Shown piece by piece: positions 5,452 to 36,655 of a stretch of DNA of 64,000 bases. Origin of the DNA: Thermoplasmata archaeon (lineage in GTDB: Archaea; Thermoplasmatota; Thermoplasmata; RBG-16-68-12; JAGMCJ01); the NCBI GenBank assembly GCA_023136265.1, contig JAGLRN010000034.1, positions 761 through 64,760 of the forward strand, written 5' to 3'. The position numbers and the translations under genes are program-made. Position 1 is the stretch's first letter. Every line of letters begins with the position of its first letter. Below the pieces are notes generated by a model. The model had not been told where the DNA came from and ran no database searches. It worked only from the letters and a program-made list of their open reading frames with translations.

Positions 5452-7641
5452 TTAGAAAGCGGATCTGGGCGGATGTCCGTTCGCCGGGAAGCACCTCGCG
5501 CGCACGCCCTTCCTCTCGATATCTATCTCTCCGCCCTCGACCAACTTCTTGACGTGATAGTTAGCTAGTTGCCTGCTTATCCCCATCAGCCTCGCGAGGT
5601 CGCTTATGGACATCCCTGGGGACTCGTTCACCCGCTCGAGTATGTCCTCCTGGATCGCGTGGAGGCCGTTGTCCGGTATCTTCATCCCAACTGGATAGAA
5701 GATCTTCCTGCTCCCCTTCGGCTTGGATACTATCAGGCCCTCCCGCTCGAGGACGTCCAGGTGATAGGTCAGCGTCCCGTTGTTCAGCTGCAGGTTCCGT
5801 TTTATCGCGGTGTAGTGCTCTCCAGGATGCACCTTGATGTAACCGTAGATCTGACCGCGCAGGAAGTGGTCCAGGATGTCCTTGCGCTTGAGCTTGACGT
5901 ACAGAGGAATCAGCAGGAACTTGAAGAGGCCGAACTTGCCCATCTCAGTGTTGAGGAACCCGCCCACGAAGGCGGCCGCGAGGAGTCCGAGCCCCAGCGG
6001 GATAATGATCGGGAACTCCTGAGCGGGAGCTTTCACGGCCACGTGGATTTCGTCGCTGGCCACGTTCCCGTCGTCGTCCTCCACGTGCAGGGTGACAGTG
6101 TAGTTGCCCGCCGCCTCGAACGCGTAGATCACCATCTGACCGGGAAGCTCAACGCTCGCATCGCCCAGCTCGATGACCCACAGGAAACTGGCGGTGTCCC
6201 AGAACCTCGGATCGTTGTCCGAGCAGTTGCCGGCGTCGAGAAGGACGGATTCGCCCACATTAGCCTCCCTGAAACCTCCCGCATCCGCGACGGGTGATGT
6301 TGTGTCGCGCACCGCTATCTTCACCGTGTCCATGTCCGAATTCCCGCCCGAGTCGCTGGCGGCAAGCGTTATCCAGTACGTGCCCGGAGTGTCGAAGACG
6401 TACTCCACGGTGAGCCCTTCGAGCCTGACGGAAGAGCCCTGGTCATCGAACTCCCAGATGAATACTCCCACGTCAAAGAAGTCAGGGCTGTTGTCCGTTG
6501 ACCCGCTCGCATTCAGCGTGAACGAAACGTCCTCGTCCACATCCTCGTTCTCACCCGCGCATGCCGTGGGCGGTGTGAGATCAGTGTCGAACACCAGCTC
6601 CACCCACGCGTTCGTCTCTATCGTCCTTAGAACCTCAGTCTCGTGCTCTCCCTTGCTCGCCGTGATGAAATACGGGTTGTGACTGTTGACCTCGAATTGG
6701 CTCAGCTCCGCCTCCGTTACGACGATATCCTTCACGATTCCGGACTCGTCCGTCCAGGCGGTCTTCTTGGCGCCGAGCCCGCTAGAGAGCAGGACCTCCG
6801 CCACGTGAACGGGCGTGGAGTGGACATCCGTCACCTCGACGGTGACGAACCACTGAATGAACACGCTCGAGAGCACATCCTCGTAGGATATCTTGCCCTC
6901 GTCAATCGTCGTGTTGATCAGTCTGGGATGGGAGTCCTCCATCACGACGAGGTCGATGAACGTGCCTGACACGGTCGAGTTTGCAATGATCGGGGAGGAG
7001 CCAGAAGCGAAGATCGAAATACCATTCCAAGTGACGGAGCTTGATTCGATGAAGGCTTCCGAGTTCTCCAGGTAGATGCCCCATTCGCCAGTCTCCTCTA
7101 CCATGGAGCCCTTCATTTCCACCGAGGAGTTCACGGAATAGATCCCAGCGAACTGGTTGTTGTTGAAATGAACGCTCTCCAGGGAGACAGAGGCCTGCTC
7201 CAGCAGCAAGAGACCGCGGTGTGCGTACTCGACCCTGGCGTTCTTGATGACGTTGTCGTGCCCCGTGAGGATGATGCTCCCCCAATCCCCCGCGTGCTTG
7301 ACAGTCGCGTTCGACGTGAATGTGATGCTCTCTCCCTCGGACGCGTCCGCGAAGAGGCGGCCCTCGACATACAGGCTCGAGTTCTCGTGAAGGAGCACGT
7401 CGACCCCCGGGTCAATGATGAGAACGTCCTCCATGCCCAGGACCGCATCATCAGTCACGATGAAGGGGCTCTCGTTGGCCTCCCAGTGCATGTCCTCGAT
7501 GAGCCCGTGTATGTATGTCGGACCTGCCGAAGCCTCGGGCGAAATAAGAGCTAGGCAGGAAAGAAGCATCACTAACATCAGAGCAATTGCGGAGCCCAGT
7601 CGAGCAATGCCTCTCGCCTCTTTCCTGCCCTTTCTGTTCAA
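5452..7641 (-). CDS. membrane-anchored surface protein: signal peptide, parallel beta-helix (NosD/PbH1-like) and 2 PKD-like domains outside, single TM, cytoplasmic tandem winged-HTH domains
   Basis: 729 aa. N-terminal signal sequence ...LISPEASA. PbH1-like repeats (NATV..., NSTVSG...). Two PKD-like segments (DTPGTYWITLAASDSGGN, FEAAGNYTVTLHVEDDDGN). Hydrophobic TM IIIPLGLGLLAAAFVGGFL. C-terminal ~160 aa carries two wHTH-like segments (ILDHFLRGQIYGYIKVHPGEHYTAIKRNL...LDVLEREGLI and MSISDLARLMGISRQLANYHVKKLVEGGEI). Confidence 0.7.
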   Translation of the reverse strand: MNRKGRKEARGIARLGSAIALMLVMLLSCLALISPEASAGPTYIHGLIEDMHWEANESPFIVTDDAVLGMEDVLIIDPGVDVLLHENSSLYVEGRLFADASEGESITFTSNATVKHAGDWGSIILTGHDNVIKNARVEYAHRGLLLLEQASVSLESVHFNNNQFAGIYSVNSSVEMKGSMVEETGEWGIYLENSEAFIESSSVTWNGISIFASGSSPIIANSTVSGTFIDLVVMEDSHPRLINTTIDEGKISYEDVLSSVFIQWFVTVEVTDVHSTPVHVAEVLLSSGLGAKKTAWTDESGIVKDIVVTEAELSQFEVNSHNPYFITASKGEHETEVLRTIETNAWVELVFDTDLTPPTACAGENEDVDEDVSFTLNASGSTDNSPDFFDVGVFIWEFDDQGSSVRLEGLTVEYVFDTPGTYWITLAASDSGGNSDMDTVKIAVRDTTSPVADAGGFREANVGESVLLDAGNCSDNDPRFWDTASFLWVIELGDASVELPGQMVIYAFEAAGNYTVTLHVEDDDGNVASDEIHVAVKAPAQEFPIIIPLGLGLLAAAFVGGFLNTEMGKFGLFKFLLIPLYVKLKRKDILDHFLRGQIYGYIKVHPGEHYTAIKRNLQLNNGTLTYHLDVLEREGLIVSKPKGSRKIFYPVGMKIPDNGLHAIQEDILERVNESPGMSISDLARLMGISRQLANYHVKKLVEGGEIDIERKGVRARCFPANGHPPRSAF

Positions 7642-7660
7642 TCGTCTCCGTCCTATGGTA

Positions 7661-10324
7661 TCAAAGCACGTAGCGTCTAATAAGGCTGATGGCCGCTATT
7701 ATGAGCGGTATCCCGACGGCCATGGGCAACATCACGTCCCTGATCGGCGGCCAGGGCGGCGCGATCATGCCTCCCTCGTTGTCGACGACCACGTCGACGC
7801 TGACCACGTCGGAATACAGCTCGCCATCATAGGCGCGTGCGTGCACCGTATGGTTTCCATTGCCGTACTCGGTCGTGTCCCAGAGATACGCCCACGTGGA
7901 CCAGCTTCCGTCGCCGGATGTGTCCGTGGCGTTCTGCCACTCACCGTCGTCTATCTTCACCTGGACGAGGTCAACCTCGTCCCCCGGGTCAGGATCGCTG
8001 GCGTACCCGTACACGAGGTACTCCCCGTCCACGGTCTCGTTCTCGACCGGATGGACGACTTCCAACTCGGGTGCGCTGTTGAGGTTGTCAACGCCCACCT
8101 CCACGCAGTCAAGCTCGGAGTGGTGCTCTCCGTCATAAGCGCGGGCGCAAACCGTGTGGTTGCCGTTCTCGTACTCGCCAGTGTTCCACTCGTAGGCCCA
8201 GTGCGACCAGCTTCCGTCGCCCGAGACGTCCACGGCATCCTCCCACTCGTCCTCGTCTATCCTGACCTGAACAAGCTCCACGCCCCCGTCGTCCTCAGCG
8301 ATCCCGTTGACCAGAACGATGCCGCTGAGTAGCGCACCATCATTCGGATAGAGGATCTCGACCTCCGGCGGGTCGTTCACATTGTCCGTGCACGCGATCA
8401 CGGTCGCATTGTCGGACCATAGCTCGCCGTCGTAGGACCTTGCGAGGATCGCGTAGCAGTCGTCATCCCACTCAGGGGTGATCCACTCGTACGCCCACTG
8501 GTACCAGCTGTCGTCCGGCGAGACGTCCTTTGCCATGTGCCACTCGCCGTCGCCGATCTTCACCTGGACCTTGGTTATGCGGTCTCCCTCATCGTTGTCC
8601 CACGCCTTCCCGTGGATGAGATAGAATCCGCTCACTTCCTCGTTGTACTCGGGATGAATGATCGAAACCTCGGGCTTGCTGTTATCGTTCTCTATGATGA
8701 CCTCTCGGACGTCCACTTCGGACCAGCCGCACTCGGAACCGGCCTTTGCCTTAACCCAATGCTCCCCGTTCTCGTAGTCACGGGTGTTCCAGTGGAATGC
8801 CCATGTCCTGTAGTCGGGGCCCCAAGACGTATCGGTCGCCTCGTGCCAATCGCCCTCATCGATCCTCACCAGGACGTGAGAGACGCCGTACCCGGGGTTC
8901 GGGTCATTGGCCGTTCCGTGGATGAGCACTATCCCGCTGAGAACGTCCCCGTTCTCGGGATGCACTATCTCGACGGTCGGGGCATCGCAACCTCCGTTCT
9001 CGACTATGACCTTCACCCAGTCGACATCGGACCAGTACTCACCGTCCCAGCCCTTGGCGTGGATGTAGTGGATGCCATCCTCCCACTGGGTGGTGTCCCA
9101 CTCCCATTTCCAGTACTCGAAGCCTTCCTCCATTCCCATCCAGGTAGCCTCGTGCCAGTCGCCGGTCTCGTCGATCTTCACGAGGACCTCGAGCAGCTCG
9201 TTGTCATCAAAACACTTGATCCAGACGTCCACCCAACCGCTGACGATTTCCTCCCAATCGGGCTCGACTATCTCGCACGTCGGCGGGTCGTTGACGTTGT
9301 CCACGTAGACGTGTATGTCCACGTACTCAGAGTAGTCCTCACCGTCGAAGGCTCTGGCGACGACCGCATGCCATCCGTCCTCGAACTCCGTCGTGTCCCA
9401 CTCGTACTCCCATGTGTGCCAATCACCGTCGGGCGAGACATCCGTGGCGTTGAACCACTCCTCTGTCCCGTCGAACGCAACCTGCACGAGCTCGACCTGG
9501 TCGCCCTCATCAGAGTCCCCAGAGTGGCCCCATACGGTCACAGTCCCGCTGACCTCGGACCAGTCAGGCGGGTGCTCGATGTTCACCCAAGGCGGCGTGT
9601 TCCCCGGCTCCTCGTTGATGACGTAGACGTGAATATCAACAATCTCCGAGTGCTCCTCGCCGTCAAAGGCCCTGACCACGAAGTAGTGCCAGCCGTTCTC
9701 GACCTCGGTCGTGTCCCAGATGTACTCCCAGTTCCACCAGTCGCCGTTCTCCGACGTGTCCGTGCAGTTGAGCCAATGCTCCGTGTTGTCGAAAGCGACC
9801 TCTACCAGCTCGACCTGGTCGCCCTCGTCCGGATCGGACGCGTGACCCCAGATTTCGACTATCCCCCAGACCTCGCTGTAGTCCGCCGGATGCTCCACCC
9901 AGACCTCGGGAGCTGTGTTGTCCTCGTTCAGCACTATGATGCCGAGGTCGTACAGCTCCGAGTGGAACTCCCCGTCGAAAGCTCTCGCGACCATGAAGTG
10001 CTCTCCGTTGAGAACGAGGGTGGTGTCCCACTCGTACGACCAGTGATGCCAGTCTCCCGTGACGTCGTTGGCGGTCTGCCAGTCATCTATGCTGTCTATG
10101 GAGATCTCCACTGTCACGACCTCGACGTCGTCCTCGGACAAACCCTCGATGGTCACGACCCCGTCCACAGTCTGACCGGGGTCGGGGTAGTTAATCACCA
10201 CCACTGGCGGCTCGTTCGCCAGACCAGTGGTGAGTGCACCCATCCCTATGACAAGCGCAAAAACCAGTACAATAGCGGTCCTGAGAAATTGCCCATTACT
10301 TCCTCCAAACCCTTTTGAGTCCAT
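7661..10324 (-). CDS. secreted/cell-surface protein with ~9 tandem Ig-like ~93-aa repeats, N-terminal signal peptide and C-terminal TM anchor
   Basis: 887 aa. Signal peptide ...ALTTGLA. Repeats follow the consensus P.V.I.HP.....VSG.V.I.G.A.D.D.GD.V.LVQV.ID.GEW..A.D.S.DGSW..W.Y.WDT.EYENG.H.V.ARA.DGE..S....V.V.VDN. C-terminal hydrophobic segment MLPMAVGIPLIIAAISLIRRYVL. Its stop lies 20 nt upstream of the next surface-protein gene, so the two likely form an operon. Confidence 0.7.
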   Translation of the reverse strand: MDSKGFGGSNGQFLRTAIVLVFALVIGMGALTTGLANEPPVVVINYPDPGQTVDGVVTIEGLSEDDVEVVTVEISIDSIDDWQTANDVTGDWHHWSYEWDTTLVLNGEHFMVARAFDGEFHSELYDLGIIVLNEDNTAPEVWVEHPADYSEVWGIVEIWGHASDPDEGDQVELVEVAFDNTEHWLNCTDTSENGDWWNWEYIWDTTEVENGWHYFVVRAFDGEEHSEIVDIHVYVINEEPGNTPPWVNIEHPPDWSEVSGTVTVWGHSGDSDEGDQVELVQVAFDGTEEWFNATDVSPDGDWHTWEYEWDTTEFEDGWHAVVARAFDGEDYSEYVDIHVYVDNVNDPPTCEIVEPDWEEIVSGWVDVWIKCFDDNELLEVLVKIDETGDWHEATWMGMEEGFEYWKWEWDTTQWEDGIHYIHAKGWDGEYWSDVDWVKVIVENGGCDAPTVEIVHPENGDVLSGIVLIHGTANDPNPGYGVSHVLVRIDEGDWHEATDTSWGPDYRTWAFHWNTRDYENGEHWVKAKAGSECGWSEVDVREVIIENDNSKPEVSIIHPEYNEEVSGFYLIHGKAWDNDEGDRITKVQVKIGDGEWHMAKDVSPDDSWYQWAYEWITPEWDDDCYAILARSYDGELWSDNATVIACTDNVNDPPEVEILYPNDGALLSGIVLVNGIAEDDGGVELVQVRIDEDEWEDAVDVSGDGSWSHWAYEWNTGEYENGNHTVCARAYDGEHHSELDCVEVGVDNLNSAPELEVVHPVENETVDGEYLVYGYASDPDPGDEVDLVQVKIDDGEWQNATDTSGDGSWSTWAYLWDTTEYGNGNHTVHARAYDGELYSDVVSVDVVVDNEGGMIAPPWPPIRDVMLPMAVGIPLIIAAISLIRRYVL
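7774..10213 (-). repeat. intragenic tandem repeats (~279 bp / ~93 aa period, ~9 copies) encoding Ig-like domains
   Basis: Recurrent D.D.GD.V.LVQV...W.Y.WDT.E.ENG.H motifs appear at regular ~93-aa spacing across the 7661..10324 CDS. Confidence 0.5.
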
Positions 10325-19150: not shown

Positions 19151-20161
19151 TCAGAACCACTGGTCGAGGCTCTTTTGCCTCATCAACGACCTGCCCTCTC
19201 CCATCTTGCGGAGGGCCTTTCTCACCCGCTCCTCGGAGAAGTCGAACCCGTCCCTGAGATACGCGACCGTCCCGTCCTCGTCCGGCTCCGACCGCTCCAG
19301 GGAGTAGTCCACAGAGACGAGCGGCTCGAGGAAGATATCCCTTACGCGTTGCACGTTCTCAACATCGAACCCCTCCTTCTCGCACACGGTCTCGATGTCC
19401 CCGTGCTTCTTGATCATCTGAAGGGCCCTCTTCGGGCCGATGCCTCGGACGCCCTCGTTGAAATCCGTCCCCACGAGCATCGCCATGTCCACGAGCTGCT
19501 CCCTCGTGACCTCGAGCGCCTCCAAAGCGGAGTCGAGCAGGACAAGCTCGGGTATGGCGGGACCGCCCCCCCGACCCCTTCTACGCCCAGATATGGTGAG
19601 ATTGCGAACCAGTCTGTCTGCGCCGAAGAGGAGCGAGTCAAAGTCCTGGGAGGCCGCCGCCCAGACATCCCTCTTCCTCGTCATGTTGCTCGCCTGGGCC
19701 TCACCCTCACCGGGTGCCTGGATGCACGGGATTCCGAGGAGGCTCAGGAGCTCCTTGGACTGATCCACCATCTCCTTGTTCAATCGGGAGGATTGAGAGG
19801 CCTTTATCCTGGCCTTTTCCAGGTCCCCCGCCGCAAGGGCCTTCTTCCACTCCTTCTCAGCCTCTCTCCTGACGGCACTTCTTGCGGCAATCGTCTCCGA
19901 CTTCAGCTTGGGTGGTTCACCGTCGAAAACGTACACCGGCTTGATGCCCATCTGCAGCAGATTGGCGTTCCTGTACATGAGCCCTGAAAGATGGGACGTC
20001 GTTCTTCCCTTGGAGTCCCTCAAAGGAGTGCCGTCCGGTTGGCGGATTATCGCGAGGAACTGGTATATGGCATTGAAGGCGTCGATGGCGATAGTCCTGC
20101 CCTTGAGCTCCTCCAGTTTGATCTGCTTCGCCGGGACGATGTCCGCTATGTCGACTCCCAT
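19151..20161 (-). CDS. fen: flap endonuclease 1
   Basis: MGVDIADIV...IAIDAFNAIYQFL...KPVYVFDGEPPKLK: XPG N and I domains plus a C-terminal PIP-like region (QKSLDQWF). Confidence 0.9.
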   Translation of the reverse strand: MGVDIADIVPAKQIKLEELKGRTIAIDAFNAIYQFLAIIRQPDGTPLRDSKGRTTSHLSGLMYRNANLLQMGIKPVYVFDGEPPKLKSETIAARSAVRREAEKEWKKALAAGDLEKARIKASQSSRLNKEMVDQSKELLSLLGIPCIQAPGEGEAQASNMTRKRDVWAAASQDFDSLLFGADRLVRNLTISGRRRGRGGGPAIPELVLLDSALEALEVTREQLVDMAMLVGTDFNEGVRGIGPKRALQMIKKHGDIETVCEKEGFDVENVQRVRDIFLEPLVSVDYSLERSEPDEDGTVAYLRDGFDFSEERVRKALRKMGEGRSLMRQKSLDQWF

Positions 20162-28469: not shown

Positions 28470-29165
28470 ATGGTATACGAAACTGAAGTAATCGCCATGA
28501 GGGACGTGATATCCCAAATGATGAAGACCTCGCAGAATAGGCTCTTAGTGAACACTGACAGGGTCTACTTGGCGAAAACCAACCTCATCACGCTCAAGTC
28601 CCTTCTCGAGGAGGTGGGGCCCAGAGGGATCTTCTTGTCTATCAACCGACCCTACCACTACATGGCCCATCTGCTGAGGATCCACAAGGTCGACTACGAA
28701 GAGATGCTCTTCATCGACGCCATCTCCAAGATATCGGGGGAGAGGAAGATGGAGTGGAAGCAGACCACGTTCTTGGACAGCCCATTCCAGATTCCCAAGA
28801 TATTCGAGGACCTGCAGCTGATTGGTAAGACCTTGGACGGCTCCACAGCCATCATCAAGATCATCGAGGGCGACTTCGTTATGATAGACGACATCTCGGC
28901 GATCTTCCACTATAACGAGCTGGGAACCGGAAAGCGCTTCCTGAAGGAGTTCCTCGATGCTGTCGCCTCCAACCCGAAGTCATTCACTGCGTTCGCGATT
29001 GACCGGGAGACCCAGAGGGATACTTACGAGTTCCTGGCCGACCACTCCGACAGGTTGGTGGACATGGGCAACGCAGCCTTCATGGAGGTTCCCAAGGAGT
29101 TCCAGGAAGGGCACACCCCCATGCTACCGCCGTCAGAGGGCAAGAGAGGGATGGTCCATGAATGA
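28470..29165 (+). CDS. DUF835-like degenerate RecA/KaiC-fold protein (no Walker A)
   Basis: Start chosen at MVYETEV... (28470) on promoter spacing. ...PRGIFLSINRPYHYMAHLL... replaces the P-loop. 8-nt overlap with the downstream KaiC-like gene. Confidence 0.5.
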   Translation: MVYETEVIAMRDVISQMMKTSQNRLLVNTDRVYLAKTNLITLKSLLEEVGPRGIFLSINRPYHYMAHLLRIHKVDYEEMLFIDAISKISGERKMEWKQTTFLDSPFQIPKIFEDLQLIGKTLDGSTAIIKIIEGDFVMIDDISAIFHYNELGTGKRFLKEFLDAVASNPKSFTAFAIDRETQRDTYEFLADHSDRLVDMGNAAFMEVPKEFQEGHTPMLPPSEGKRGMVHE

Positions 29166-29841
29166 TGCGATCATAAGGCGGTCCAGCGGAACGCCCGGCC
29201 TGGATGAGATGATATCTGGAGGTTTCCCCTTCCCCTCGGTTCTCCTCGTTGCTGGGAGTGCCGGGACGGGAAAGACGACCTTCGCTCAGAAGTTCCTTTT
29301 CGAGGGTGCCAAGAACGGAGAGCAGTGCATATTCTTCACGACGCTCAGCGAGCCCACCCAGTGGATGTTGAGGTTCTCCTCCCAGTTCGAGTTCGTCGAT
29401 CCAGAGTACTTCGGCAGGGAGATAGTATACATCGACATAGGACACGACATAAGGGAGAGGGGCTCCCATGAGATCCTCGACGTCCTGGATGAGAAGATCG
29501 CCGAGATCATGCCACAGAGGATAGTCATCGATCCGATTACCATCGTTTGCGACTTCATAGAGGACAACTACAGGACATTCTTGTTCGATCTAGTCACTAG
29601 GCTGAAGAACTGGGATTGCGTGACGGTCCTGACGGGCGAGGTCGCTCCCGGTCAGCTTTATCCGCCGGAGATCGCCCACGCCGTGGACGGGATAGTCCTG
29701 CTCATGTACTCGCACGAAGGTGACGAGAGACGCAAGTACATCGAGGTCCTCAAGATGAGGGGAACGAACCATGTCACCGGAAAGCAGTCAATAGACATCA
29801 CAACCGAAGAGGGCATAGTCGTTCTCAAATCGAAGTTCTAG
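29158..29841 (+). CDS. KaiC-like single-domain RecA-superfamily ATPase
   Basis: Walker A AGSAGTGKTTFAQKFL. Walker B-like ...RIVIDPITI. 227 aa, the KaiC/RadA-paralog size. Confidence 0.75.
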   Translation: MNDAIIRRSSGTPGLDEMISGGFPFPSVLLVAGSAGTGKTTFAQKFLFEGAKNGEQCIFFTTLSEPTQWMLRFSSQFEFVDPEYFGREIVYIDIGHDIRERGSHEILDVLDEKIAEIMPQRIVIDPITIVCDFIEDNYRTFLFDLVTRLKNWDCVTVLTGEVAPGQLYPPEIAHAVDGIVLLMYSHEGDERRKYIEVLKMRGTNHVTGKQSIDITTEEGIVVLKSKF

Positions 29842-30008
29842 TAGGCCCGGAGAGCGGGCCAGAGCGTCATTATCGCACGTGATAATGGGAAAACAAGATG
29901 CTTATACTCTGCGCCTGCTGTTTCAAAGAGCCAACAGATAACGATGACCCCTCCTCCGAGGAAGGACGAGGCCCCATTTTCTTGGGATCTTTGCTTTCCT
30001 CACCCCCC

Positions 30009-30017
30009 TTTTTTTAT
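30009..30017 (+). terminator. oligo-T tract downstream of KaiC-like operon
   Basis: CCCCCCTTTTTTTATT lies ~170 nt after the stop at 29841. Confidence 0.25.
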
Positions 30018-30250
30018 TCGTGTAATGGGTGAGGATGGGCTAGGGAACTATTCGAGATCCTTCTTCCTCGTGTCCTTGAAAACGATGACGTTGAGGCTTA
30101 TGACCTCTTTTTCTTCGTCCTCCTCCTTTGGAAAAATCACGCTTTTGCCGTTGGGAAGGATTTTGTGGAATCTTAGCTTCATCTTATCAGTAAATCGTAG
30201 AGAGCCGGTTTATTTAAACTCAGTCTCACGGTTATCGAGAGTGATTCTCA

Positions 30251-30589
30251 TTACAGAATCTCAATCGTCTCCCAATCCTGCGTCACTGCCTGCTCATCCA
30301 GTGTGAGGACGAACCTCAGCCGGATGTCGTTGTCCTCAATGTGAATGTGCCCCTTGTTGAGATTGGCCTCGAAGAGCCTCACTACTCTTCCTCGCCGTGT
30401 GACGATTCTCTTCCTCACCGACAGAAGTCCTGCCCTCATGAGCAGGTTCAGCTTCCTGTAGCACGAGGCGATTGGAATCGAGTACTTCCCGCAGAGCTCG
30501 TACGCGGATTTCGGTGAGAGAAACGTCGCAACAAGGATGTGCTTCACATCATCATCGCGCAACAGTTTCAGCTTCTGATGGATGTTCAT
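30251..30589 (-). CDS. small winged-HTH regulator, paralog 2 (most divergent)
   Basis: Start set at MNIHQKLKLLRDDDVKHILVATF. This aligns residue for residue with the N-termini of paralogs 1 and 3. HTH YELCGKYSIPIASCYRKLNLLMRAGLL. C-terminal RLRF motif. Has its own TATA-like element (TTGATAAAAAG) in the 72-nt spacer. Confidence 0.5.
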   Translation of the reverse strand: MNIHQKLKLLRDDDVKHILVATFLSPKSAYELCGKYSIPIASCYRKLNLLMRAGLLSVRKRIVTRRGRVVRLFEANLNKGHIHIEDNDIRLRFVLTLDEQAVTQDWETIEIL

Positions 30590-30661
30590 CAGAGAACGTA
30601 TTAGTGTGACAAATAATGGCACTTTCGACCTTTTTATCAAAAGAGAGTATCAGAAGAGATA

Positions 30662-31006
30662 CTACTCCTTGGAATCGACGCCCGTCCAGTCCCCGCCGAA
30701 GTCCTTGATCACACCGGTGGTCAAGTGGAAGCGGACCCTGAGCCTTCCGCCTTCAAAGAAAACGTAAGCGTTCTTGAGCCTCGAGGTGTAGAGGTTCTTC
30801 CTCTTCCCCTTCTGCGTCAAAATGCGCTCTACGCACTCCACGAGCCCTATCTCCTCAAGGGCCCTGATCTTTCGATAGCAAGCAGCAATCGGTATCCCGT
30901 ACTTCCTGCTTATCTCTTGGGCGCTCAGTCTTCTCTTGAAAGTTGCCAAGAGGATCTTCGCCGTGTATTCATCCGTCAGCAGTTGAGAGGCTTCTAGCGG
31001 TGTCAT
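30662..31006 (-). CDS. small winged-HTH regulator, paralog 3
   Basis: 114 aa. MTPLEASQLLTDEYTAKILLATF...YGIPIAACYRKIRALEEIGLVECVE...GRLRVRFHL. ~70% identical to paralog 1. Confidence 0.6.
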   Translation of the reverse strand: MTPLEASQLLTDEYTAKILLATFKRRLSAQEISRKYGIPIAACYRKIRALEEIGLVECVERILTQKGKRKNLYTSRLKNAYVFFEGGRLRVRFHLTTGVIKDFGGDWTGVDSKE

Positions 31007-31134
31007 TCTAAACCCTCCCTGATACCCCCATGACGAGAAGTTCTCAGGTTATGGTTGTAGTTCGTATCACTTTCTGTATTTAAAGGCTTCCCTTAAGCTA
31101 TCAGCAAGGAGAACACAATTATCAGGATTGATAG

Positions 31135-31488
31135 CTACCTGGTTGGGATGGGGATCTTGATCCACGTGTTGTTGATGTCCTCGTCGTGGTTGAACTCAAG
31201 TCTGATTCTGAAATGCCCTTCCTGGAACATGATGCAGGCGCTCTTGAGCTGTGACTTGTAGAGCTTCATGTTCTTTCCCTTGGAGGTCGTGACGATCTTC
31301 TCGACCTCGATCAATCCAGCGTCCTCGAGGTCATGCATCTTGCGGTAGCAAGCGGCTATGGGGATATCGTACTTGTCGCTGATTTCCTGAACTGACCGCG
31401 GGTAGAAGTACGTCGCAACAAGAATCCTCTCTGCGTAGTCATTAGTCAGTAGTCTAGAGATTGCCTTCTCCCGCATTGCGATACTCAT
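31135..31488 (-). CDS. small winged-HTH regulator, paralog 4
   Basis: 117 aa. ...YAERILVATY...YDIPIAACYRKMHDLEDAGLIEVE...FRIRLEF. Directly downstream of the two-domain KaiC-like gene. Confidence 0.55.
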   Translation of the reverse strand: MSIAMREKAISRLLTNDYAERILVATYFYPRSVQEISDKYDIPIAACYRKMHDLEDAGLIEVEKIVTTSKGKNMKLYKSQLKSACIMFQEGHFRIRLEFNHDEDINNTWIKIPIPTR

Positions 31489-31557
31489 TCTCTACTTGAT
31501 TTAAGCACATTTCTATGCAATTATCAACGATGATACCCATACACCCGTTTCAGGCGG

Positions 31558-33072
31558 CTAGATTATCGGTGTGAGCATGGCCTTTGGACAGCCACTCGAG
31601 TGATCGAAGGAAATGGCATGGAGCTCGGTGTAGGGCTTCTCGCCGAAGAGAACAACGGAACCGTCTATGTTCTCGATCTTCAGATGGGTGTGGGCAAGAT
31701 TCGCGAGCGGTGCGGTGGAAGAAGTCGTTGACGTAACAATCCCTATGAAGATGTCCTTCGCCTTCCTGATCGACGACATGTGACCGGCCATATCCTCTAT
31801 CACTTGGTGACCGAAGACCGCCTCCAGGGTATCGAATCCCATCAGGGACAGGATCGGACGCTCCGCCTGCGAGAGATGATACTCGATGTTGCTCAATTTC
31901 AGCTCGTTGTCGATATCAGAACCCTCCATAGGGAGTGCTATCTTGGAATCCTCGACAGACGTTGTGGCGGACGGCTCGAACACGCGCATGCATCTCTCGA
32001 GCGCCTCCTGGCCGACAAAAGGCATGATTTCGTCCCTAACGATCTCCGAGGAGGCTTTCTTCTCGGGGACGAACGCAACTCCCCTGCCGAGTGAGATGAA
32101 ATTCGATAGGAGCGCGGTCTTGATGAGGTCGGTGTACAGCGTGTCGACATTCCCGCCTACCTCCAGAGCGACTATCGTACCCTTCTTGAATCCGCCTATC
32201 AGAGCGTCGAGTTGCTCGCTTCCCGTCGAGATCCAGTTCTCCGATATGTCCGGTATGGGTACCCAACTCGACTTCTCTTCCGGTATCTCAATCTTCTCGA
32301 AGCCGAAGGTCTTGATCCTCCCCCCGTCCAGAGTGTAGGCGCACTTGTGCTGCCTGATCTCGGTGCCGCGAAGCTTCTCGATCTTCATAATCCTCAAGCG
32401 TCTGCCCTCGTGTTCCTCGCTCGTGAACGTGATGACCCCGTCCCCAAGATAATCGAGCCGCGTCTCCCCAGGGCTCTCCAGCACATACAGGACATCGGAC
32501 GAGGAAGTCTCGACCAGGTCCTTCTGGAGTGTGTTCATTAGCTTCGAGGGGTGGATCCCGTATCTCTCCGCCAGCGCGTTGATGCTGTCTATCAGTATGA
32601 GGCTCTTCTCCGGGAGCGTGTCCTCGACCACATCATATGCCCTGTCGATCTCGGGGAGGTCCGATCCAAGGTCCAGGATGAGGCTGGTCTCCGTGACCTC
32701 GCCCTCGCTTATCTTGTCGTAAATGCTGCTCTCGTCCTCCTCGCCCATCTCTATCCTGCCCTCGAGCTTCTTGAGCTCCGTTCTGTCGACCTTGCCTTCC
32801 TCCTCCTCAGGCCTTTGGTCGAACCTTGTCGGGGCGATCCGCTTCTTGAACTCGACCCTGTCCTTGAGCCAAGGGAACTGGTTGTACAGGGAATGGTCGC
32901 TTACCCTGATCGACATGTAGTAGGAGTTCTCGACACTCCCCAGTTCCTCTGTCAGTTGCAGGGCGAACGTCGTCTTGCCCGTTCCCGCACTGCCCTTGAC
33001 TATCAGGGAATGTCCACCTGGCCCTTTGAAGAAATCCAGCAGCGCATTGGGAATACCCTTCTCTTCCTTCAT
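31558..33072 (-). CDS. two-domain KaiC-like RecA-superfamily ATPase (active N-domain, degenerate C-domain)
   Basis: 504 aa. Walker A GSAGTGKTTFALQ in domain 1, followed by a charged insert. Domain 2 (GGFKKGTIVALEVGGNVDTLYTDL) lacks a P-loop. Confidence 0.75.
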   Translation of the reverse strand: MKEEKGIPNALLDFFKGPGGHSLIVKGSAGTGKTTFALQLTEELGSVENSYYMSIRVSDHSLYNQFPWLKDRVEFKKRIAPTRFDQRPEEEEGKVDRTELKKLEGRIEMGEEDESSIYDKISEGEVTETSLILDLGSDLPEIDRAYDVVEDTLPEKSLILIDSINALAERYGIHPSKLMNTLQKDLVETSSSDVLYVLESPGETRLDYLGDGVITFTSEEHEGRRLRIMKIEKLRGTEIRQHKCAYTLDGGRIKTFGFEKIEIPEEKSSWVPIPDISENWISTGSEQLDALIGGFKKGTIVALEVGGNVDTLYTDLIKTALLSNFISLGRGVAFVPEKKASSEIVRDEIMPFVGQEALERCMRVFEPSATTSVEDSKIALPMEGSDIDNELKLSNIEYHLSQAERPILSLMGFDTLEAVFGHQVIEDMAGHMSSIRKAKDIFIGIVTSTTSSTAPLANLAHTHLKIENIDGSVVLFGEKPYTELHAISFDHSSGCPKAMLTPII

Positions 33073-33205: not shown

Positions 33206-34201
33206 TCACTTCCCGATGGCCTTGAAAGCCTCCCGCGCAACGTTCACGTCGTTCTGATGGAAGAGGAGACCCACTGCCTCGGCCTCCGTGCACCACTTGT
33301 ACTTATCGAACCTGGATTCGGGCTCTGGTTTTCCCTCGGGAGCACGCGCGAGGAAGTAGGTGACCTTCTTCCGGTAGTTGACGTCGTCCTGGGGCCAGTA
33401 ATAGGAGTACTCGACCTCACATAGCTCCCGCTCGATTTTTGTCGACCCGAGCCCCGTCTCCTCCTCCATCTCTCTCATGGCAGCGCGTTCCGGGGTCTCG
33501 CCCATCTCGATGTGACCTTTCGGAAGGCACCAGAGTTTCTCGCTCCTTTTGCGGATGAGAAGGATCCTTCCCCTCCTGTGGATGACGCCTCCAGCGGTCT
33601 TGACGGAGATATCTCTATTCCCCTTCCTGGCGGGCCTGCTGATAATCCTCACCTCCTCGGATTCTGCAAACTCCTTCGCCCTTTTCAGGTCTGACGTCAG
33701 GTGCTTCAGCAGCCGTCTGTTGTAGAGGACCGCCGCGGGGTGGTAGGTCGAGATTAGTGGCCTTCCCTCGTATTCCCTGGTTTCGAGCCGAGCCTCGGAC
33801 ACCTTCACGGACTTGCCGGCTAGGACGCTGTGCGCGAACGATCCTAGCGCCACGACTGCATAGGGGTCCACCGCATCGATGTACGCTTCCAGATGGGGTC
33901 GGCATTTCTCTATCTCGTCCTTTCTGGGGTTCCGATTCCCCGGCGGACGGCACCGAAGCACGCTCGTGATGAAAACGCCATCCCGCATCAGACCCGCCTT
34001 CTTGAGCGATTCGTTCAGGATCTTTCCCGCCGCTCCGACGAAGGGGCGACCTTGCTTGTCCTCCTCCCTTCCAGGGGCCTCCCCTACAAGGAATATGCGC
34101 GCGTTCCTGTCTCCCTCACCTGGAACCGCCCTCTCGCGTGTCTTCCACAGCCTGCACCTCCTGCATCGCCTTACCCGCCTCGCGAGTTCTTCCAGACTCA
34201 T
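33206..34201 (-). CDS. fusion protein: family-4 uracil-DNA glycosylase (4Fe-4S type) + NUDIX hydrolase
   Basis: N-terminal half has C-x2-C...GEAPG..E...G.PFVG.AG...R.DGVFITSVLRCRPPGNRNP...C and the HPAAVLY motif of UDG family 4. C-terminal half carries the NUDIX box GHIEMGETPERAAMREMEEETG. Confidence 0.75.
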   Translation of the reverse strand: MSLEELARRVRRCRRCRLWKTRERAVPGEGDRNARIFLVGEAPGREEDKQGRPFVGAAGKILNESLKKAGLMRDGVFITSVLRCRPPGNRNPRKDEIEKCRPHLEAYIDAVDPYAVVALGSFAHSVLAGKSVKVSEARLETREYEGRPLISTYHPAAVLYNRRLLKHLTSDLKRAKEFAESEEVRIISRPARKGNRDISVKTAGGVIHRRGRILLIRKRSEKLWCLPKGHIEMGETPERAAMREMEEETGLGSTKIERELCEVEYSYYWPQDDVNYRKKVTYFLARAPEGKPEPESRFDKYKWCTEAEAVGLLFHQNDVNVAREAFKAIGK

Positions 34202-34210
34202 CCCAGGCCT

Positions 34211-34675
34211 CTAGATCTCCACGTCCCTGACAACTTCCTTCTTGAGAACGATGTCAAGCACGCCGTTTCGCAGAGTCCATTTCATGTCGCTCCCATGGAC
34301 GGTCGTGGGCAGGTCCACTTCCGCGTAGTACTTCCTCTCTCCTCCCACTCGGACTATCAGCTTGGATCCCTTCGCCTCGACCTCCACATCATCTTCCGAA
34401 GCTCCCGGAAGTTCCATCGTGACGAAGATCTCGCCCTTTCCCTGAATCACGTCCGTGAGCGGCTGCCTCTCTCCCAGGCCCTTTCCCTCTTCGAGATACC
34501 TGGTGTTGCCGAAATCCGAGATCTTTGTCTTGCCGTCGGGACCTGTTCGCAAGGAGAACCCATACATGAAGGACTCGTCCCTCAGCGAATCGATCTGAGA
34601 TAGCGAGAGCTGCCTGAACATCCTTCGCATGAGACGACGCATCATCGCGAATTCGTCTTCTGGCTCCTCGTCCAT
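34211..34675 (-). CDS. small heat-shock protein (Hsp20/alpha-crystallin family)
   Basis: Alpha-crystallin domain GEIFVTMELPGASEDDVEVEAKGSKLIVRVG...GVLDIVLKK. 154 aa. Confidence 0.75.
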   Translation of the reverse strand: MDEEPEDEFAMMRRLMRRMFRQLSLSQIDSLRDESFMYGFSLRTGPDGKTKISDFGNTRYLEEGKGLGERQPLTDVIQGKGEIFVTMELPGASEDDVEVEAKGSKLIVRVGGERKYYAEVDLPTTVHGSDMKWTLRNGVLDIVLKKEVVRDVEI

Positions 34676-34676
34676 T

Positions 34677-34880
34677 CTATCTTTCTACCAGGAACGAGAC
34701 CTTCACATTCGCCCTGAACTCAACGATTTCGTCGTCCCTTACTTTGGCGGAGAACTTGACCACATCGATGCCGCTGATGCCTCTCGTGGTCTTCTTCGCA
34801 TCGCTGAAGGCGTTGAGGATAGCGTCCTCGAAGCTCTTGTTTGAGCAGCCAACAAGCTCGACTACTTTTGCAGTTGTCAT
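34677..34880 (-). CDS. dodecin-family flavin-binding protein
   Basis: 67 aa. VVELVGCSNKSFEDA...ISGIDVVKFSAKVRDDEIVEFRANVKVSF matches the dodecin beta-alpha-beta-beta pattern. Confidence 0.65.
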   Translation of the reverse strand: MTTAKVVELVGCSNKSFEDAILNAFSDAKKTTRGISGIDVVKFSAKVRDDEIVEFRANVKVSFLVER

Positions 34881-34921: not shown

Positions 34922-36655
34922 TTAGGTCTTGAACCACGCCAGGAGTTCTTTGGCGGGCAGGGTGTTCAGAACGTCCTCTGGCTCAAGCCAGGCTCGCCTG
35001 GCGGTGCCGACACCGAACTTCATGAAGTCCATTTGCCCCAACGTGTGCGCGTCCGTCCCGAGAACGAGCTTGACTCCCCGCTCCTTTGCCAATCTCGCGT
35101 CCCTGTCGTTCAGATCGAGCCTGTCGATCCACGAGTTGATCTCGAGAGCCGTGCTCGTCTCCAGGGCAGCATCCAGTATTTTGTCTATGTCCAGTTCGTA
35201 GGGCTCCCTTTTGCCGATGAGCCTCCCAGTGGGATGCGAGATGAAATCGACGTGCTCGTTCTCCATGGCCGTCACTATCCTCTCTGTCATCCTCTCCTTT
35301 TCCATCTTGAACTGGGAGTGCACCGCGCCGATCACTATGTCCAGCTCCTTGAGTATCTCGTCATCGTAGTCCAGTTCCCCGCTCACCTTGATGTTCACCT
35401 CGTTGCTCGAGAATATCCTGAAGCTCTTCTCCCTCCCGTTCAGTTCCTTGATCATGTCGACCTGCTCGAGCAGGACATCATCATCGAGTCCGCCGGCGAT
35501 CTTTATTCCCCTTGAGTGATCGGCAATGCCGACGTAGGAGTAGCCAAGCGTCTTGGACTCCTCCACCATCCTCTCGATGGATTCCGTTCCGTCGCTCCAC
35601 TCGGTGTGGACGTGGAGGTCTCCTTTGACGTCGTCGAGTCGTATCAACTTGGGCAAACAGTCCGACTGGGCAGCTTCGATTTCCCCTCTATCCTCTCTCA
35701 GCTCGGGTGCGATAAAGTCCATCCCCAGTGCTTCATAGACGCCCTCCTCAGTCTCTCCCGCAATCCGCTTCTCTCCCTCGAAGAGACCGTACTCGTTCAG
35801 CTTCCAGTCCTTGGTCTGGGCGATTCTCCTCAGACGGATATTGTGGTCCTTGGACCCGGTGAAGTACTGCAGCGCGGAACCGAAGCCCTGGGCGTCAACG
35901 ACACGGAGGTCCGTTTGCAGTCTTACGGTCGTCTGAAGCTCAACATTCCTTCTCTCCACAATCACGCTCGTCTTCGTGGGCCCGCTCACGATGACCTCTT
36001 CAACACCCGGGAGTGCGGTAAACGCTTTCATCACTTCCTCTGGCTCGTCCGATGCCACCAGAATGTCGAGGTCACCCACCGTTTCCCGCATCCTCCGAGC
36101 CGAGCCCGCCACGGATATCCTGCCGATGTGGCACTTTGTCTTCAGCACTTCGATCAGCTCTTCAGCAAGCGGGAGACCCAATCCCAGGAGTACCCTCTTC
36201 CCCGCTCCGGAGAAGGTGCGGAGACTGTTGAGTATGTTCTCCTCGCTCTTTTCGCTAAACCCTCTGAGCTTCCTGATTCTACCCTTCCTGGCGGCCTGCT
36301 CAAGTTCCTCGATGCTCGTCACTCCGAGTTGCTGGTACAAGGTCTTCACAGTTTTCGGGCCAACGCCAGGGATGTCAAGGAGCTCCAGAAGACCTGGCGG
36401 GAATTCGGCCTTGAGCCTCTCCAGGTAAGTTATCTTCCCGGTCTTGACATATTCCTCTATCTTCTTGGCTAGGGCCTTCCCGATTCCCGGGAGCTCTAGT
36501 AGCTCCCCCCTATCAGCGATTCCCGCAATGTCCTCCTTGAGCCCTTCCACGACTCTCGCGGCCCGCTGGTACGCCCGGGCCTTGAAAGGCTGGTCCTTCA
36601 CATCCTCGAGGTCGCCAATCTGGACGAGGATTGCCGCGAGCTCCTTGTTCTTCAC
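34922..36655 (-). CDS. polX: DNA polymerase X family protein with C-terminal PHP phosphoesterase domain
   Basis: N-terminal HhH/8-kDa region (AYQRAARVVEGLKEDIAGI), Pol-beta-like NT fold (GSARRMRETVGDLDILV), and a PHP domain with HVHTEWSDG...HSRG...H motifs. Confidence 0.85.
   Translation of the reverse strand: MKNKELAAILVQIGDLEDVKDQPFKARAYQRAARVVEGLKEDIAGIADRGELLELPGIGKALAKKIEEYVKTGKITYLERLKAEFPPGLLELLDIPGVGPKTVKTLYQQLGVTSIEELEQAARKGRIRKLRGFSEKSEENILNSLRTFSGAGKRVLLGLGLPLAEELIEVLKTKCHIGRISVAGSARRMRETVGDLDILVASDEPEEVMKAFTALPGVEEVIVSGPTKTSVIVERRNVELQTTVRLQTDLRVVDAQGFGSALQYFTGSKDHNIRLRRIAQTKDWKLNEYGLFEGEKRIAGETEEGVYEALGMDFIAPELREDRGEIEAAQSDCLPKLIRLDDVKGDLHVHTEWSDGTESIERMVEESKTLGYSYVGIADHSRGIKIAGGLDDDVLLEQVDMIKELNGREKSFRIFSSNEVNIKVSGELDYDDEILKELDIVIGAVHSQFKMEKERMTERIVTAMENEHVDFISHPTGRLIGKREPYELDIDKILDAALETSTALEINSWIDRLDLNDRDARLAKERGVKLVLGTDAHTLGQMDFMKFGVGTARRAWLEPEDVLNTLPAKELLAWFKT

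Follow-up and report, generated by a model that had tools for sequence, protein, structure and literature searches.

A gene on the minus strand of a 64,000-nucleotide stretch from a Thermoplasmata archaeon (assembly GCA_023136265.1, contig JAGLRN010000034.1, positions 761 to 64,760; hereafter the window) encodes, at 33206–34201, a family-4 uracil-DNA glycosylase (UDG4) and a complete NUDIX hydrolase, the NUDIX box of which is canonical, in one polypeptide of 331 residues. We consider it rather likely that the product is a bifunctional genome-maintenance enzyme, in which the glycosylase half would excise uracil and the NUDIX half would hydrolyse a nucleotide-type substrate toward the same end. 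The gene is complete (ATG start, TGA stop), and no internal stop interrupts the open reading frame (ORF). The UDG profile PF03167 matches residues 27–165 at 118.3 bits (cutoff 24.3) and the NUDIX profile PF00293 matches residues 203–312 at 74.7 bits (cutoff 21.1), with domain E-values of 1e-34 and 1e-20, respectively, that are well past chance level. The G+C content at third codon positions (GC3) is even over the gene (0.72 and 0.78 in the two halves, 0.71–0.76 in neighbouring genes) and thus gives no hint of a chimeric join. The initial annotation of this region had described a single polypeptide in which a family-4 UDG precedes a NUDIX domain with a canonical box, a description that the single ORF and the Pfam and NCBIfam domains bear out, and all the motifs that it named (the Cys ligands, GEAPG, HPAAVLY and the NUDIX box GHIEMGETPERAAMREMEEETGL) are found. 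The check that it advised, for a frameshift or stop between the halves, reveals neither; the ORF is uninterrupted, and the same layout is seen in the best 120 clusters of related proteins.

These clusters derive from a search of ∼5.8 billion protein clusters that gave 7763 matches, the best 120 of which were analysed for architecture. Both Pfam domains are present in all 120 (44–94% identity, 298–378 residues), and a check of motif positions places UDG before NUDIX in every one. The sequences originate from NCBI, JGI, ENA and Logan assemblies, and named members belong to metagenome-assembled genomes (MAGs) of Thermoplasmata or ‘Methanobacteriota’. The window protein itself is found identical on 9 public contigs. 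Its nearest counterparts in GTDB genomes, at 85–89% identity, belong to Thermoplasmata MAGs, as identified by a scan with patterns built from one sequence, which yielded just 4 full-length loci. Assemblies that carry the forward fusion include GCA_046761045.1, GCA_009772755.1, GCA_036704645.1 and ERZ1758346 (a 1.04-Mb scaffold). The conservation counts below are based on the query aligned with its 120 homologues (n = 121), and purifying selection acts on both domains throughout the family.

The UDG half (residues 1–180, 33662–34201; all features of the gene are on the minus strand) scores 181.3 bits with the NCBIfam model TIGR00758 (UDG_fam4, cutoff 125.3) and matches the structure 4zbx with an E-value of 7e-47, and lies below the cutoff of the narrower equivalog NF040953 (Arch_udg; 199 versus 250). 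UdgX enzymes possess a GEQPG motif and an insertion loop bearing a His; the UdgX model TIGR03914 was missed here (137.6 bits, cutoff 189.95), and motif A reads GEAPG. The N-terminal pair of predicted [4Fe-4S] ligands, Cys13-x2-Cys16 (34154–34165), is assigned by sequence conservation and is Cys in all 117 homologues that cover the N-terminus. The second pair, Cys84 and Cys100, encloses motif 3 with the water-positioning Asn89 (33902–33952), and these three residues are unchanged in 121/121. All four Cys align with Cys residues of 4zbx and 1l9g, consistent with the predicted cluster. Motif A (motif 1; residues 40–44, 34070–34084), of which E41 lies in the uracil pocket, is invariant at G40, E41, P43 and G44 (121/121), with position 42 being Ala in 118 sequences and Gly in 3. 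Motif B (motif 2; HPAAVLY, residues 154–160, 33722–33742) contains the catalytic His154, which together with P155 is invariant in 121/121, and A156 is present in 120/121. The remaining invariant residues of this half are E47 and F54 (n = 121).

The residue numbering of the UDG half is nearly identical to that of Thermus UDGa, in which the uracil pocket is formed by E41, G42, E47, F54, N80 and H155, with the leaving uracilate stabilised by H155, a critical residue, and the water positioned by N89 (PMC5387724). The window protein has E41, A42, E47, F54, N89 and H154, and a Ser at position 80 (33962–33964), the position of the uracil-contacting Asn80. By alignment, the catalytic set of Thermus UDGa is complete in the UDG half except for this Asn80 to Ser replacement. 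The stand-alone UDGa enzymes of S. tokodaii (4ZBX), T. thermophilus (1UI0) and Thermotoga maritima (1L9G) have 40–45% identity to residues 1–180 and the same fold, and share the four Cys, GEAPG, F54, N89 and the HPA motif; they are single-domain proteins of ∼190–205 residues, whereas the window protein adds 150 residues of C-terminal linker and NUDIX domain and carries Ser in place of the uracil-contacting Asn80. Position 80 is Asn in 98 of the 121 sequences and Ser in 23 (the window protein and 22 relatives), and we regard Ser80 as a natural variant that may have lower efficiency or relaxed specificity. An adaptation of the pocket specific to the fusions, considered for Ser80 and for a GQAPG version of motif A, was rejected, as both are common among UDG4s scored as stand-alone: Ser80 occurs in 14 GEAPG-type and 74 GQAPG-type proteins so scored, at least one of the latter (P0340) being a miscalled fusion.

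The NUDIX half (residues 199–331, i.e. 133 residues, 33209–33607) is ApnA-hydrolase-like (diadenosine polyphosphate hydrolase-like), as delineated by PF00293 and by alignment with Aquifex aeolicus aq_158. Its NUDIX box (residues 229–251, 33449–33517) fits the consensus GX5EX7REUXEEXGU, and G229, E235, R243, E244, E247, E248 and G250 are invariant in 121/121, a pattern that reads as a signature of retained catalysis. Invariance extends to W224, K228, F298 and W303 (n = 121). An aromatic cluster, Y265-S-Y-Y268, is located in the X-loop region at +14 to +17 after the box (33398–33409), with position 265 being Tyr in 115 and Phe in 6 of the 121 sequences and an aromatic residue present at 267 in 118/121 and at 268 in 113/121. 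A conserved X-loop Tyr ∼17 residues past the box is given as the mark of ApnA hydrolases (Dunn et al. 1999, as cited in PMC5389931); Y265, Y267 and Y268, at +14, +16 and +17, fall in the region of this diagnostic Tyr, which is Tyr87 in human NUDT2, by sequence position only. The best match of the NUDIX half is to aq_158 (3i7u), which aligns end to end (E-value 1.5e-16), followed by CT771, Ndx1 and MutT1 (7e-11 to 3e-8). These alignments place it in the subgroup of aq_158, Thermus Ndx1, Chlamydia CT771 and mycobacterial MutT1, although the identity to characterised relatives is only ∼26–37%, a range at which the substrate is not assignable in silico.

The closest of these relatives, aq_158 (3I7U/3I7V), is an Ap4A/Ap5A/Ap6A hydrolase since renamed ‘Omnivore RNA pyrophosphatase’, and the two proteins share an SAGG N-terminal strand, W-x-[FL]-PKG before the box and an aromatic cluster after it. 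Their identity in the Foldseek alignment is 35%, too low for a transfer of specificity, and aq_158 is a free-standing bacterial protein of 134 residues with no known tie to DNA repair. A 2026 study shows that it hydrolyses Ap4A to Ap6A and also decaps RNA, taking triphosphate, diphosphate, m7G, NAD, FAD, Np4 and sugar groups off 5′ ends, base-paired ones among them (PMC13145063). The subgroup is thus able to use free dinucleotides as well as polynucleotide ends. Thermus Ndx1 (Ap6A hydrolase, 1VC8), CT771 (Ap4A hydrolase, 4ILQ/4MPO) and MutT1 (5GG5/9CXX) belong to the same NUDIX subgroup, with template modelling (TM) scores of 0.78–0.88; in mycobacterial MutT1 the partner is a histidine-phosphatase domain and not a glycosylase. 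The substrates of MutT1 relatives are 8-oxo-(d)GTP. The initial annotation had named dUTP, oxidised dNTPs or ADP-ribose as substrates, a choice that these comparisons do not demonstrate, the closest relatives being ApnA hydrolases and 5′-end pyrophosphatases together with MutT1.

An AlphaFold2 model of the fusion, computed with a 114-sequence family alignment, has a mean predicted local distance difference test score (pLDDT) of 95.0 and a predicted TM score (pTM) of 0.86. The interdomain linker (residues 181–198, 33608–33661) is predicted to be ordered, and its pLDDT of 87–94 is indicative of a single compact body and not of two beads on a tether; the UDG and NUDIX halves are accordingly predicted to pack against each other. 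In Foldseek searches of the PDB, the UDG half superimposes on 4zbx, 1l9g, 1ui0 and 1vk2 with target TM scores of 0.87–0.90 and root-mean-square deviations of 1.4–2.0 Å, and the NUDIX half on 3I7U (Aquifex Ap4A hydrolase) and 1VC8 with TM scores of 0.87–0.88, followed by CT771 and MutT1. No PDB structure covers both halves, the top query-normalised TM score being 0.52.

The distribution of the architecture, for which the initial annotation had asked, comprises a narrow forward clade of Thermoplasmata type and fusions of the opposite order in Bathyarchaeota and Micrarchaeia. In an exhaustive HMMER scan of 1.84 billion representatives at 50% identity, full-length UDG–NUDIX proteins are represented by P0065, P0080, P0121 and the divergent P0124, whereas P0122, P0130 and P0123 are fragments or a deletion variant of the forward fusion, and the remaining matches are single-domain UDG4s or UDG4s with other N-terminal extensions. 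The small number of representatives implies that the forward fusion constitutes one fairly narrow clade. In P0123 (238 residues) UDG motif B is joined directly to the second half of a NUDIX box (TYHPAAVREVHEETG) and ∼85 residues are gone, the result either of a natural deletion or pseudogene formation or of chimeric assembly. The opposite order, NUDIX–UDG4, was seen in P0126, P0128, P0135 and P0252, and a profile of the reverse fusions extended these to at least 30 clusters in which the reverse order was verified, of which those that are named belong to MAGs of Candidatus Bathyarchaeota or Micrarchaeia. The reverse fusions (P0128, P0333, P0325; loci L078 and L084) combine the same two Pfam families in ∼320–330 residues, retain an intact NUDIX box and are also predicted to be compact, as illustrated by the model of P0128 (pLDDT 91.6, pTM 0.86), which has a long linker helix. 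Position 80 is Ser in nearly all of them. They differ from the window protein in that motif A is, in nearly all, GQAPG rather than GEAPG, and in that they are found without the PolX/small heat-shock protein (sHSP) neighbourhood described below.

The NUDIX domains of the forward fusions have a mean identity of 34% to stand-alone ApnA hydrolases in the PDB, and of 29% and 27% to the two reverse groups, which are mutually 22% identical. In 100 bootstrapped neighbour-joining trees per domain, the fused proteins formed a single clade in none (0/100) for either domain, and the NUDIX domains of Bathyarchaeota (REVb) and Micrarchaeia (REVm) formed clades in 100/100 and 83/100, respectively. Separate NUDIX clades together with opposite domain order indicate at least two independent fusions, and the number of such events is probably three.

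Several of the reverse-order proteins depart from the canonical UDG motifs. The E41Q variant of Thermus UDGa suffers a ∼900-fold loss, and the GQAPG-type reverse UDGs may therefore differ in their working or need compensation. P0135-type reverse fusions (L078, 6001–6981) have no N-terminal Cys pair, with QFFPP instead of KCFPP, and are probably without an Fe-S cluster. In P0252, GGSPG and YDPGS replace motifs A and B, such that the catalytic His is gone and the UDG domain may be inactive. P0340 (CP070791.1, GCA_020346825.1, Bathyarchaeota; L084, 4587–5582) is annotated as a UDG of 193 residues, which is a truncated gene call; the true ORF has a TTG start and encodes a NUDIX–UDG4 protein of 331 residues that is 85% identical to P0314 without gaps. 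Its placement as a stand-alone UDG neighbouring the reverse fusions in the tree was consequently withdrawn. The short ‘stand-alone’ UDGs P0344, P0347, P0339 and P0342, near the reverse fusions, may be similar miscalls. UDG4 domains have other partners as well: P0125 (351 residues) joins a HAD-family hydrolase to UDG4, P0212 (391 residues) a GreA N-terminal domain, and on many bacterial UDG4s there are N-terminal extensions of 50–200 residues that have no explanation as yet. UDG4-type domains have likewise been recruited into multidomain replication and repair proteins in the phage A-family DNA polymerase–UDG4-like fusions (9QHS; bioRxiv 10.1101/2025.03.26.645540), in which the context is viral and the partner is a polymerase, whereas the partner here is NUDIX.

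The sole textbook DNA glycosylase with a C-terminal NUDIX-fold domain is MutY/MUTYH (PMC9266487), the layout of which, an N-terminal Fe-S glycosylase followed by a C-terminal NUDIX domain, is analogous. The core of MutY has the HhH-GPD fold, whereas the window protein has the alpha/beta UDG fold, and the NUDIX domain of MutY, which binds 8-oxoG in DNA, no longer has the catalytic box that is invariant here. Consistent with these differences, the window protein has no HhH-GPD match and scores 26 bits with PF14815 (cutoff 35). A review of the accessory domains of DNA glycosylases names NUDIX solely for MutY/MUTYH (PMC9266487), neither uracil nor UDG comes up in a survey of the NUDIX clan, and no published UDG–NUDIX fusion was found in the open-access literature searched, which is not proof of absence. 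Both halves thus belong to well-known families, and it is their combination that is absent from the literature searched. The initial annotation had called the architecture non-standard, which holds for the literature and not for public MAG data, where such proteins are numerous under generic names. Database labels include ‘uracil-DNA glycosylase family protein’, ‘NUDIX domain-containing protein’ and, at JGI, ‘DNA polymerase’; the family is hence filed under generic or misleading names, and at least one complete genome truncates the fusion to a stand-alone UDG through a wrong start codon.

The fusion is the last gene of a closely spaced, co-directional string on the minus strand, which begins with PolX, a family X DNA polymerase with a C-terminal PHP domain (34922–36655, GTG start) and the first gene of the apparent operon. 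PolX is followed after 41 nucleotides by dodecin (34677–34880), after 1 nucleotide by the sHSP gene (34211–34675) and after 9 nucleotides by the fusion. Shine–Dalgarno-like GGAGG/GAGG sequences are located ahead of the dodecin and fusion starts, with GAGG preceding the fusion ATG, and a TATA-like sequence (TTTTTATG) lies ∼32 nucleotides upstream of the PolX start. Downstream of the fusion, also on the minus strand, are a GvpD-like/KaiC-like P-loop ATPase (31558–33072, 133 nucleotides away) and two small HTH_20/TrmB-like regulators (30662–31488). We compared 7 forward-fusion loci (44–100% identity). A gene of sHSP size is upstream on the same strand in all 7, with an HSP20-type Pfam match in 6 and none for L080, and PolX adjoins the fusion in 7/7 in two arrangements: in the subclade of the window, PolX is upstream and co-directional with dodecin inserted, and in the other subclades (L072, L073, L080–L082) it is directly downstream and convergent, with 3′ ends that overlap or abut. 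Dodecin is limited to the subclade of the window, being absent in L072, L073 and L080–L082. Survival of the PolX–fusion linkage through rearrangement provides modest evidence for selection. The ATPase and helix-turn-helix (HTH) genes follow the fusion in 7/7 loci, and the ATPase is thus a conserved neighbour with an unproven link to the fusion. The stress and DNA-repair neighbourhood described in the initial annotation is upheld by these data, sHSP, dodecin and PolX all being confirmed by Pfam and the presence of PolX and an sHSP-sized gene extending to every locus compared.

In a bifunctional genome-maintenance enzyme, the UDG half would excise uracil arising from cytosine deamination, and the adjacent PolX-PHP protein would carry out downstream repair, i.e. 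gap filling and processing. The PHP domains of bacterial PolX have end-processing and apurinic/apyrimidinic endonuclease roles. The NUDIX half would hydrolyse a nucleotide-type pyrophosphate for the same purpose as the UDG, the most likely substrates being non-canonical (d)NTPs (e.g. dUTP, 8-oxo-dGTP), dinucleoside polyphosphates that accumulate during heat or oxidative stress, or both, and the fusion gene would form one expression unit with PolX, dodecin and sHSP. Recurrence of the fusion in both orders is a clear functional hint, and the recruitment of different NUDIX clades by different lineages favours an easily evolved function such as nucleotide hydrolysis. Many prokaryotes, including Euryarchaeota, are without any known dUTPase (PMC5122711), which makes a dUTP-directed role attractive, though unproven. 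The coupling of uracil removal with nucleotide hydrolysis put forward in the initial annotation is therefore matched by the architecture, while its mechanistic side is something that we infer. On balance we rank pool sanitation or stress-nucleotide turnover first, ahead of independent co-expressed activities, 5′-end processing and non-catalytic recognition, in that order.

A number of observations weigh against the favoured assignment. Ser80 replaces a residue whose alanine mutant (N80A) in T. thermophilus UDGa shows a >40-fold drop in k2/Km (PMC5387724). Among characterised proteins, those nearest to the NUDIX half are ApnA hydrolases and 5′-end pyrophosphatases, not dUTPases, and its NCBIfam scores lie below the cutoffs of the equivalogs for MutT (TIGR00586, 32.4 versus 97.9 bits), MutT1 (NF052459, 53.7 versus 475), RppH (NF001938, 34.5 versus 116) and NudG (NF007834, 24.8 versus 156), as well as NF008736 (29.1 versus 169), with the NudE and ADP-ribose pyrophosphatase equivalogs likewise far under their cutoffs. 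The dUTPase, Dcd and MazG families are absent among the Pfam and NCBIfam matches of the fusion protein, and judged by these comparisons the NUDIX half has no close relationship to known dUTPases or ADP-ribose pyrophosphatases. Wider collinearity, comprising PurP, KptA, DTD2 and a Na/Ca exchanger, is also kept in the lineage, so that part of the neighbourhood signal is plain lineage synteny. Finally, at 47 verified stand-alone UDG4 loci from other lineages (L005–L051), an ORF with a NUDIX box lies within 3 kb of the UDG4 gene in none (0/47); stop-to-stop ORFs were used, such that miscalled start codons cannot mask fusions. The pairing is therefore seen as a fusion only and not as a general operonic theme, and no unfused UDG4 and NUDIX operon, as precursor or general theme, was found at these loci.

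The last of these results is in keeping with a different view, in which the two activities are independent and fusion only gives equal, co-regulated expression under heat or oxidative stress. The uptake of separate NUDIX clades in separate lineages and the fusion of UDG4 to other partners (the HAD hydrolase of P0125, GreA in P0212 and phage DNA polymerase in 9qhs) are also compatible with such independence. However, the same pairing recurs in two or three lineages at the least, with either domain first, and the confident compact packing with an ordered linker that is predicted for both orders (pTM 0.86) exceeds what a flexible tether would produce; we therefore regard independence as unlikely, if still worth keeping in mind. 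A second alternative is that the NUDIX half acts not on free nucleotides but on the polynucleotide ends of repair intermediates, e.g. 5′-AppDNA from abortive ligation in base excision repair, or 5′-triphosphate, NAD or Np4 caps, in which case one protein would carry out both the opening and the closing clean-up reactions of uracil repair. AppDNA formally counts as a nucleoside diphosphate linked to X, the closest characterised homologue, aq_158, strips many RNA 5′ caps, base-paired ends included (PMC13145063), both orders are predicted to be rigid two-domain bodies fit for a shared nucleic-acid surface, and PolX is an obligate neighbour in 7/7 loci. Opposed to this are the low identity to aq_158, which precludes transfer of its specificity, the demonstration of its activity on RNA in vitro only, DNA substrates being absent from that paper (PMC13145063), and the isoelectric point of the NUDIX domains, which is not consistently basic (median 6.5, range 4.9–11.5) and argues against a conserved DNA-binding face. 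We accordingly hold end processing to be improbable. It is far less probable again that the NUDIX half is non-catalytic and recognises some feature of a base or nucleotide close to the lesion, tuning the specificity of the UDG, as in MutY/MUTYH, for which there is the precedent of a glycosylase with a C-terminal NUDIX fold recognising 8-oxoG (PMC9266487) and a weak, sub-cutoff match to PF14815 (NUDIX_4, 26 bits), since the MutY NUDIX domain is without the catalytic box that is here invariant in 121/121 and intact in the reverse fusions. An artefact, in which adjacent genes were joined by a sequencing frameshift or misassembly, is ruled out by the same unbroken layout in 120/120 best clusters from four assembly sources, the identical protein on 9 contigs, the uniform GC3 and the predicted ordered linker, no point having been found in its support.

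Returning to the bifunctional enzyme, a more specific and rather doubtful proposal is that its NUDIX half has a repair-specific job that has not been assigned to any known NUDIX enzyme, either as the ‘missing’ dUTP hydrolysis of archaea without canonical dUTPases, physically tied to uracil excision, or as a 5′-end pyrophosphatase (e.g. an AppDNA deadenylase) that clears intermediates of base excision repair. If true, UDG4–NUDIX would be a new, repeatedly evolved two-step module of uracil control in archaea. Uracil is a leading heat-driven lesion of DNA, at which the replicative polymerases of archaea stall. How uracil is excluded from DNA in archaea without recognisable dUTPases is an open point (PMC5122711), and the fusion provides an easily cloned candidate for the coupled removal of uracil from DNA and of its precursor or by-product. 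Enzyme fusions within genome maintenance are unsurprising per se; judged from its conserved residues, this one would be a second glycosylase–NUDIX architecture beside MutY, with the NUDIX chemistry retained.

Among the further observations on the surroundings of the gene, a KaiC-like ATPase (28957–29841) joins the GvpD-like ATPase and the HTH genes in one block (window 28957–33072), which comes after the fusion in all relatives compared and with which no gas-vesicle genes were seen. A window insertion between DTD2/KptA and the PolX–fusion block holds a phosphate ABC transporter with PhoU and a 2-oxoacid:ferredoxin oxidoreductase. A flap endonuclease of the FEN1/XPG family is located at 19151–20161 on the minus strand, ∼13 kb from the fusion and outside the conserved block. 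At the locus L079 (5453–6960, GCA_053993855.1), which holds a divergent, AT-rich forward fusion of the P0124/P0288 cluster, an HD phosphohydrolase gene overlaps the fusion start by 4 nucleotides and a MazG pyrophosphatase is encoded 2 kb upstream on the opposite strand, neighbours that hint at a theme of nucleotide house-cleaning. Elsewhere in the window, the minus strand at 5452–10324 encodes two large secreted-type proteins: one of 887 residues contains four Big_7 Ig repeats, and the other, of 729 residues, combines beta-helix and PKD domains and ends in HVO_0163-type and MarR-type HTH domains, an unusual pairing of PKD and HTH.

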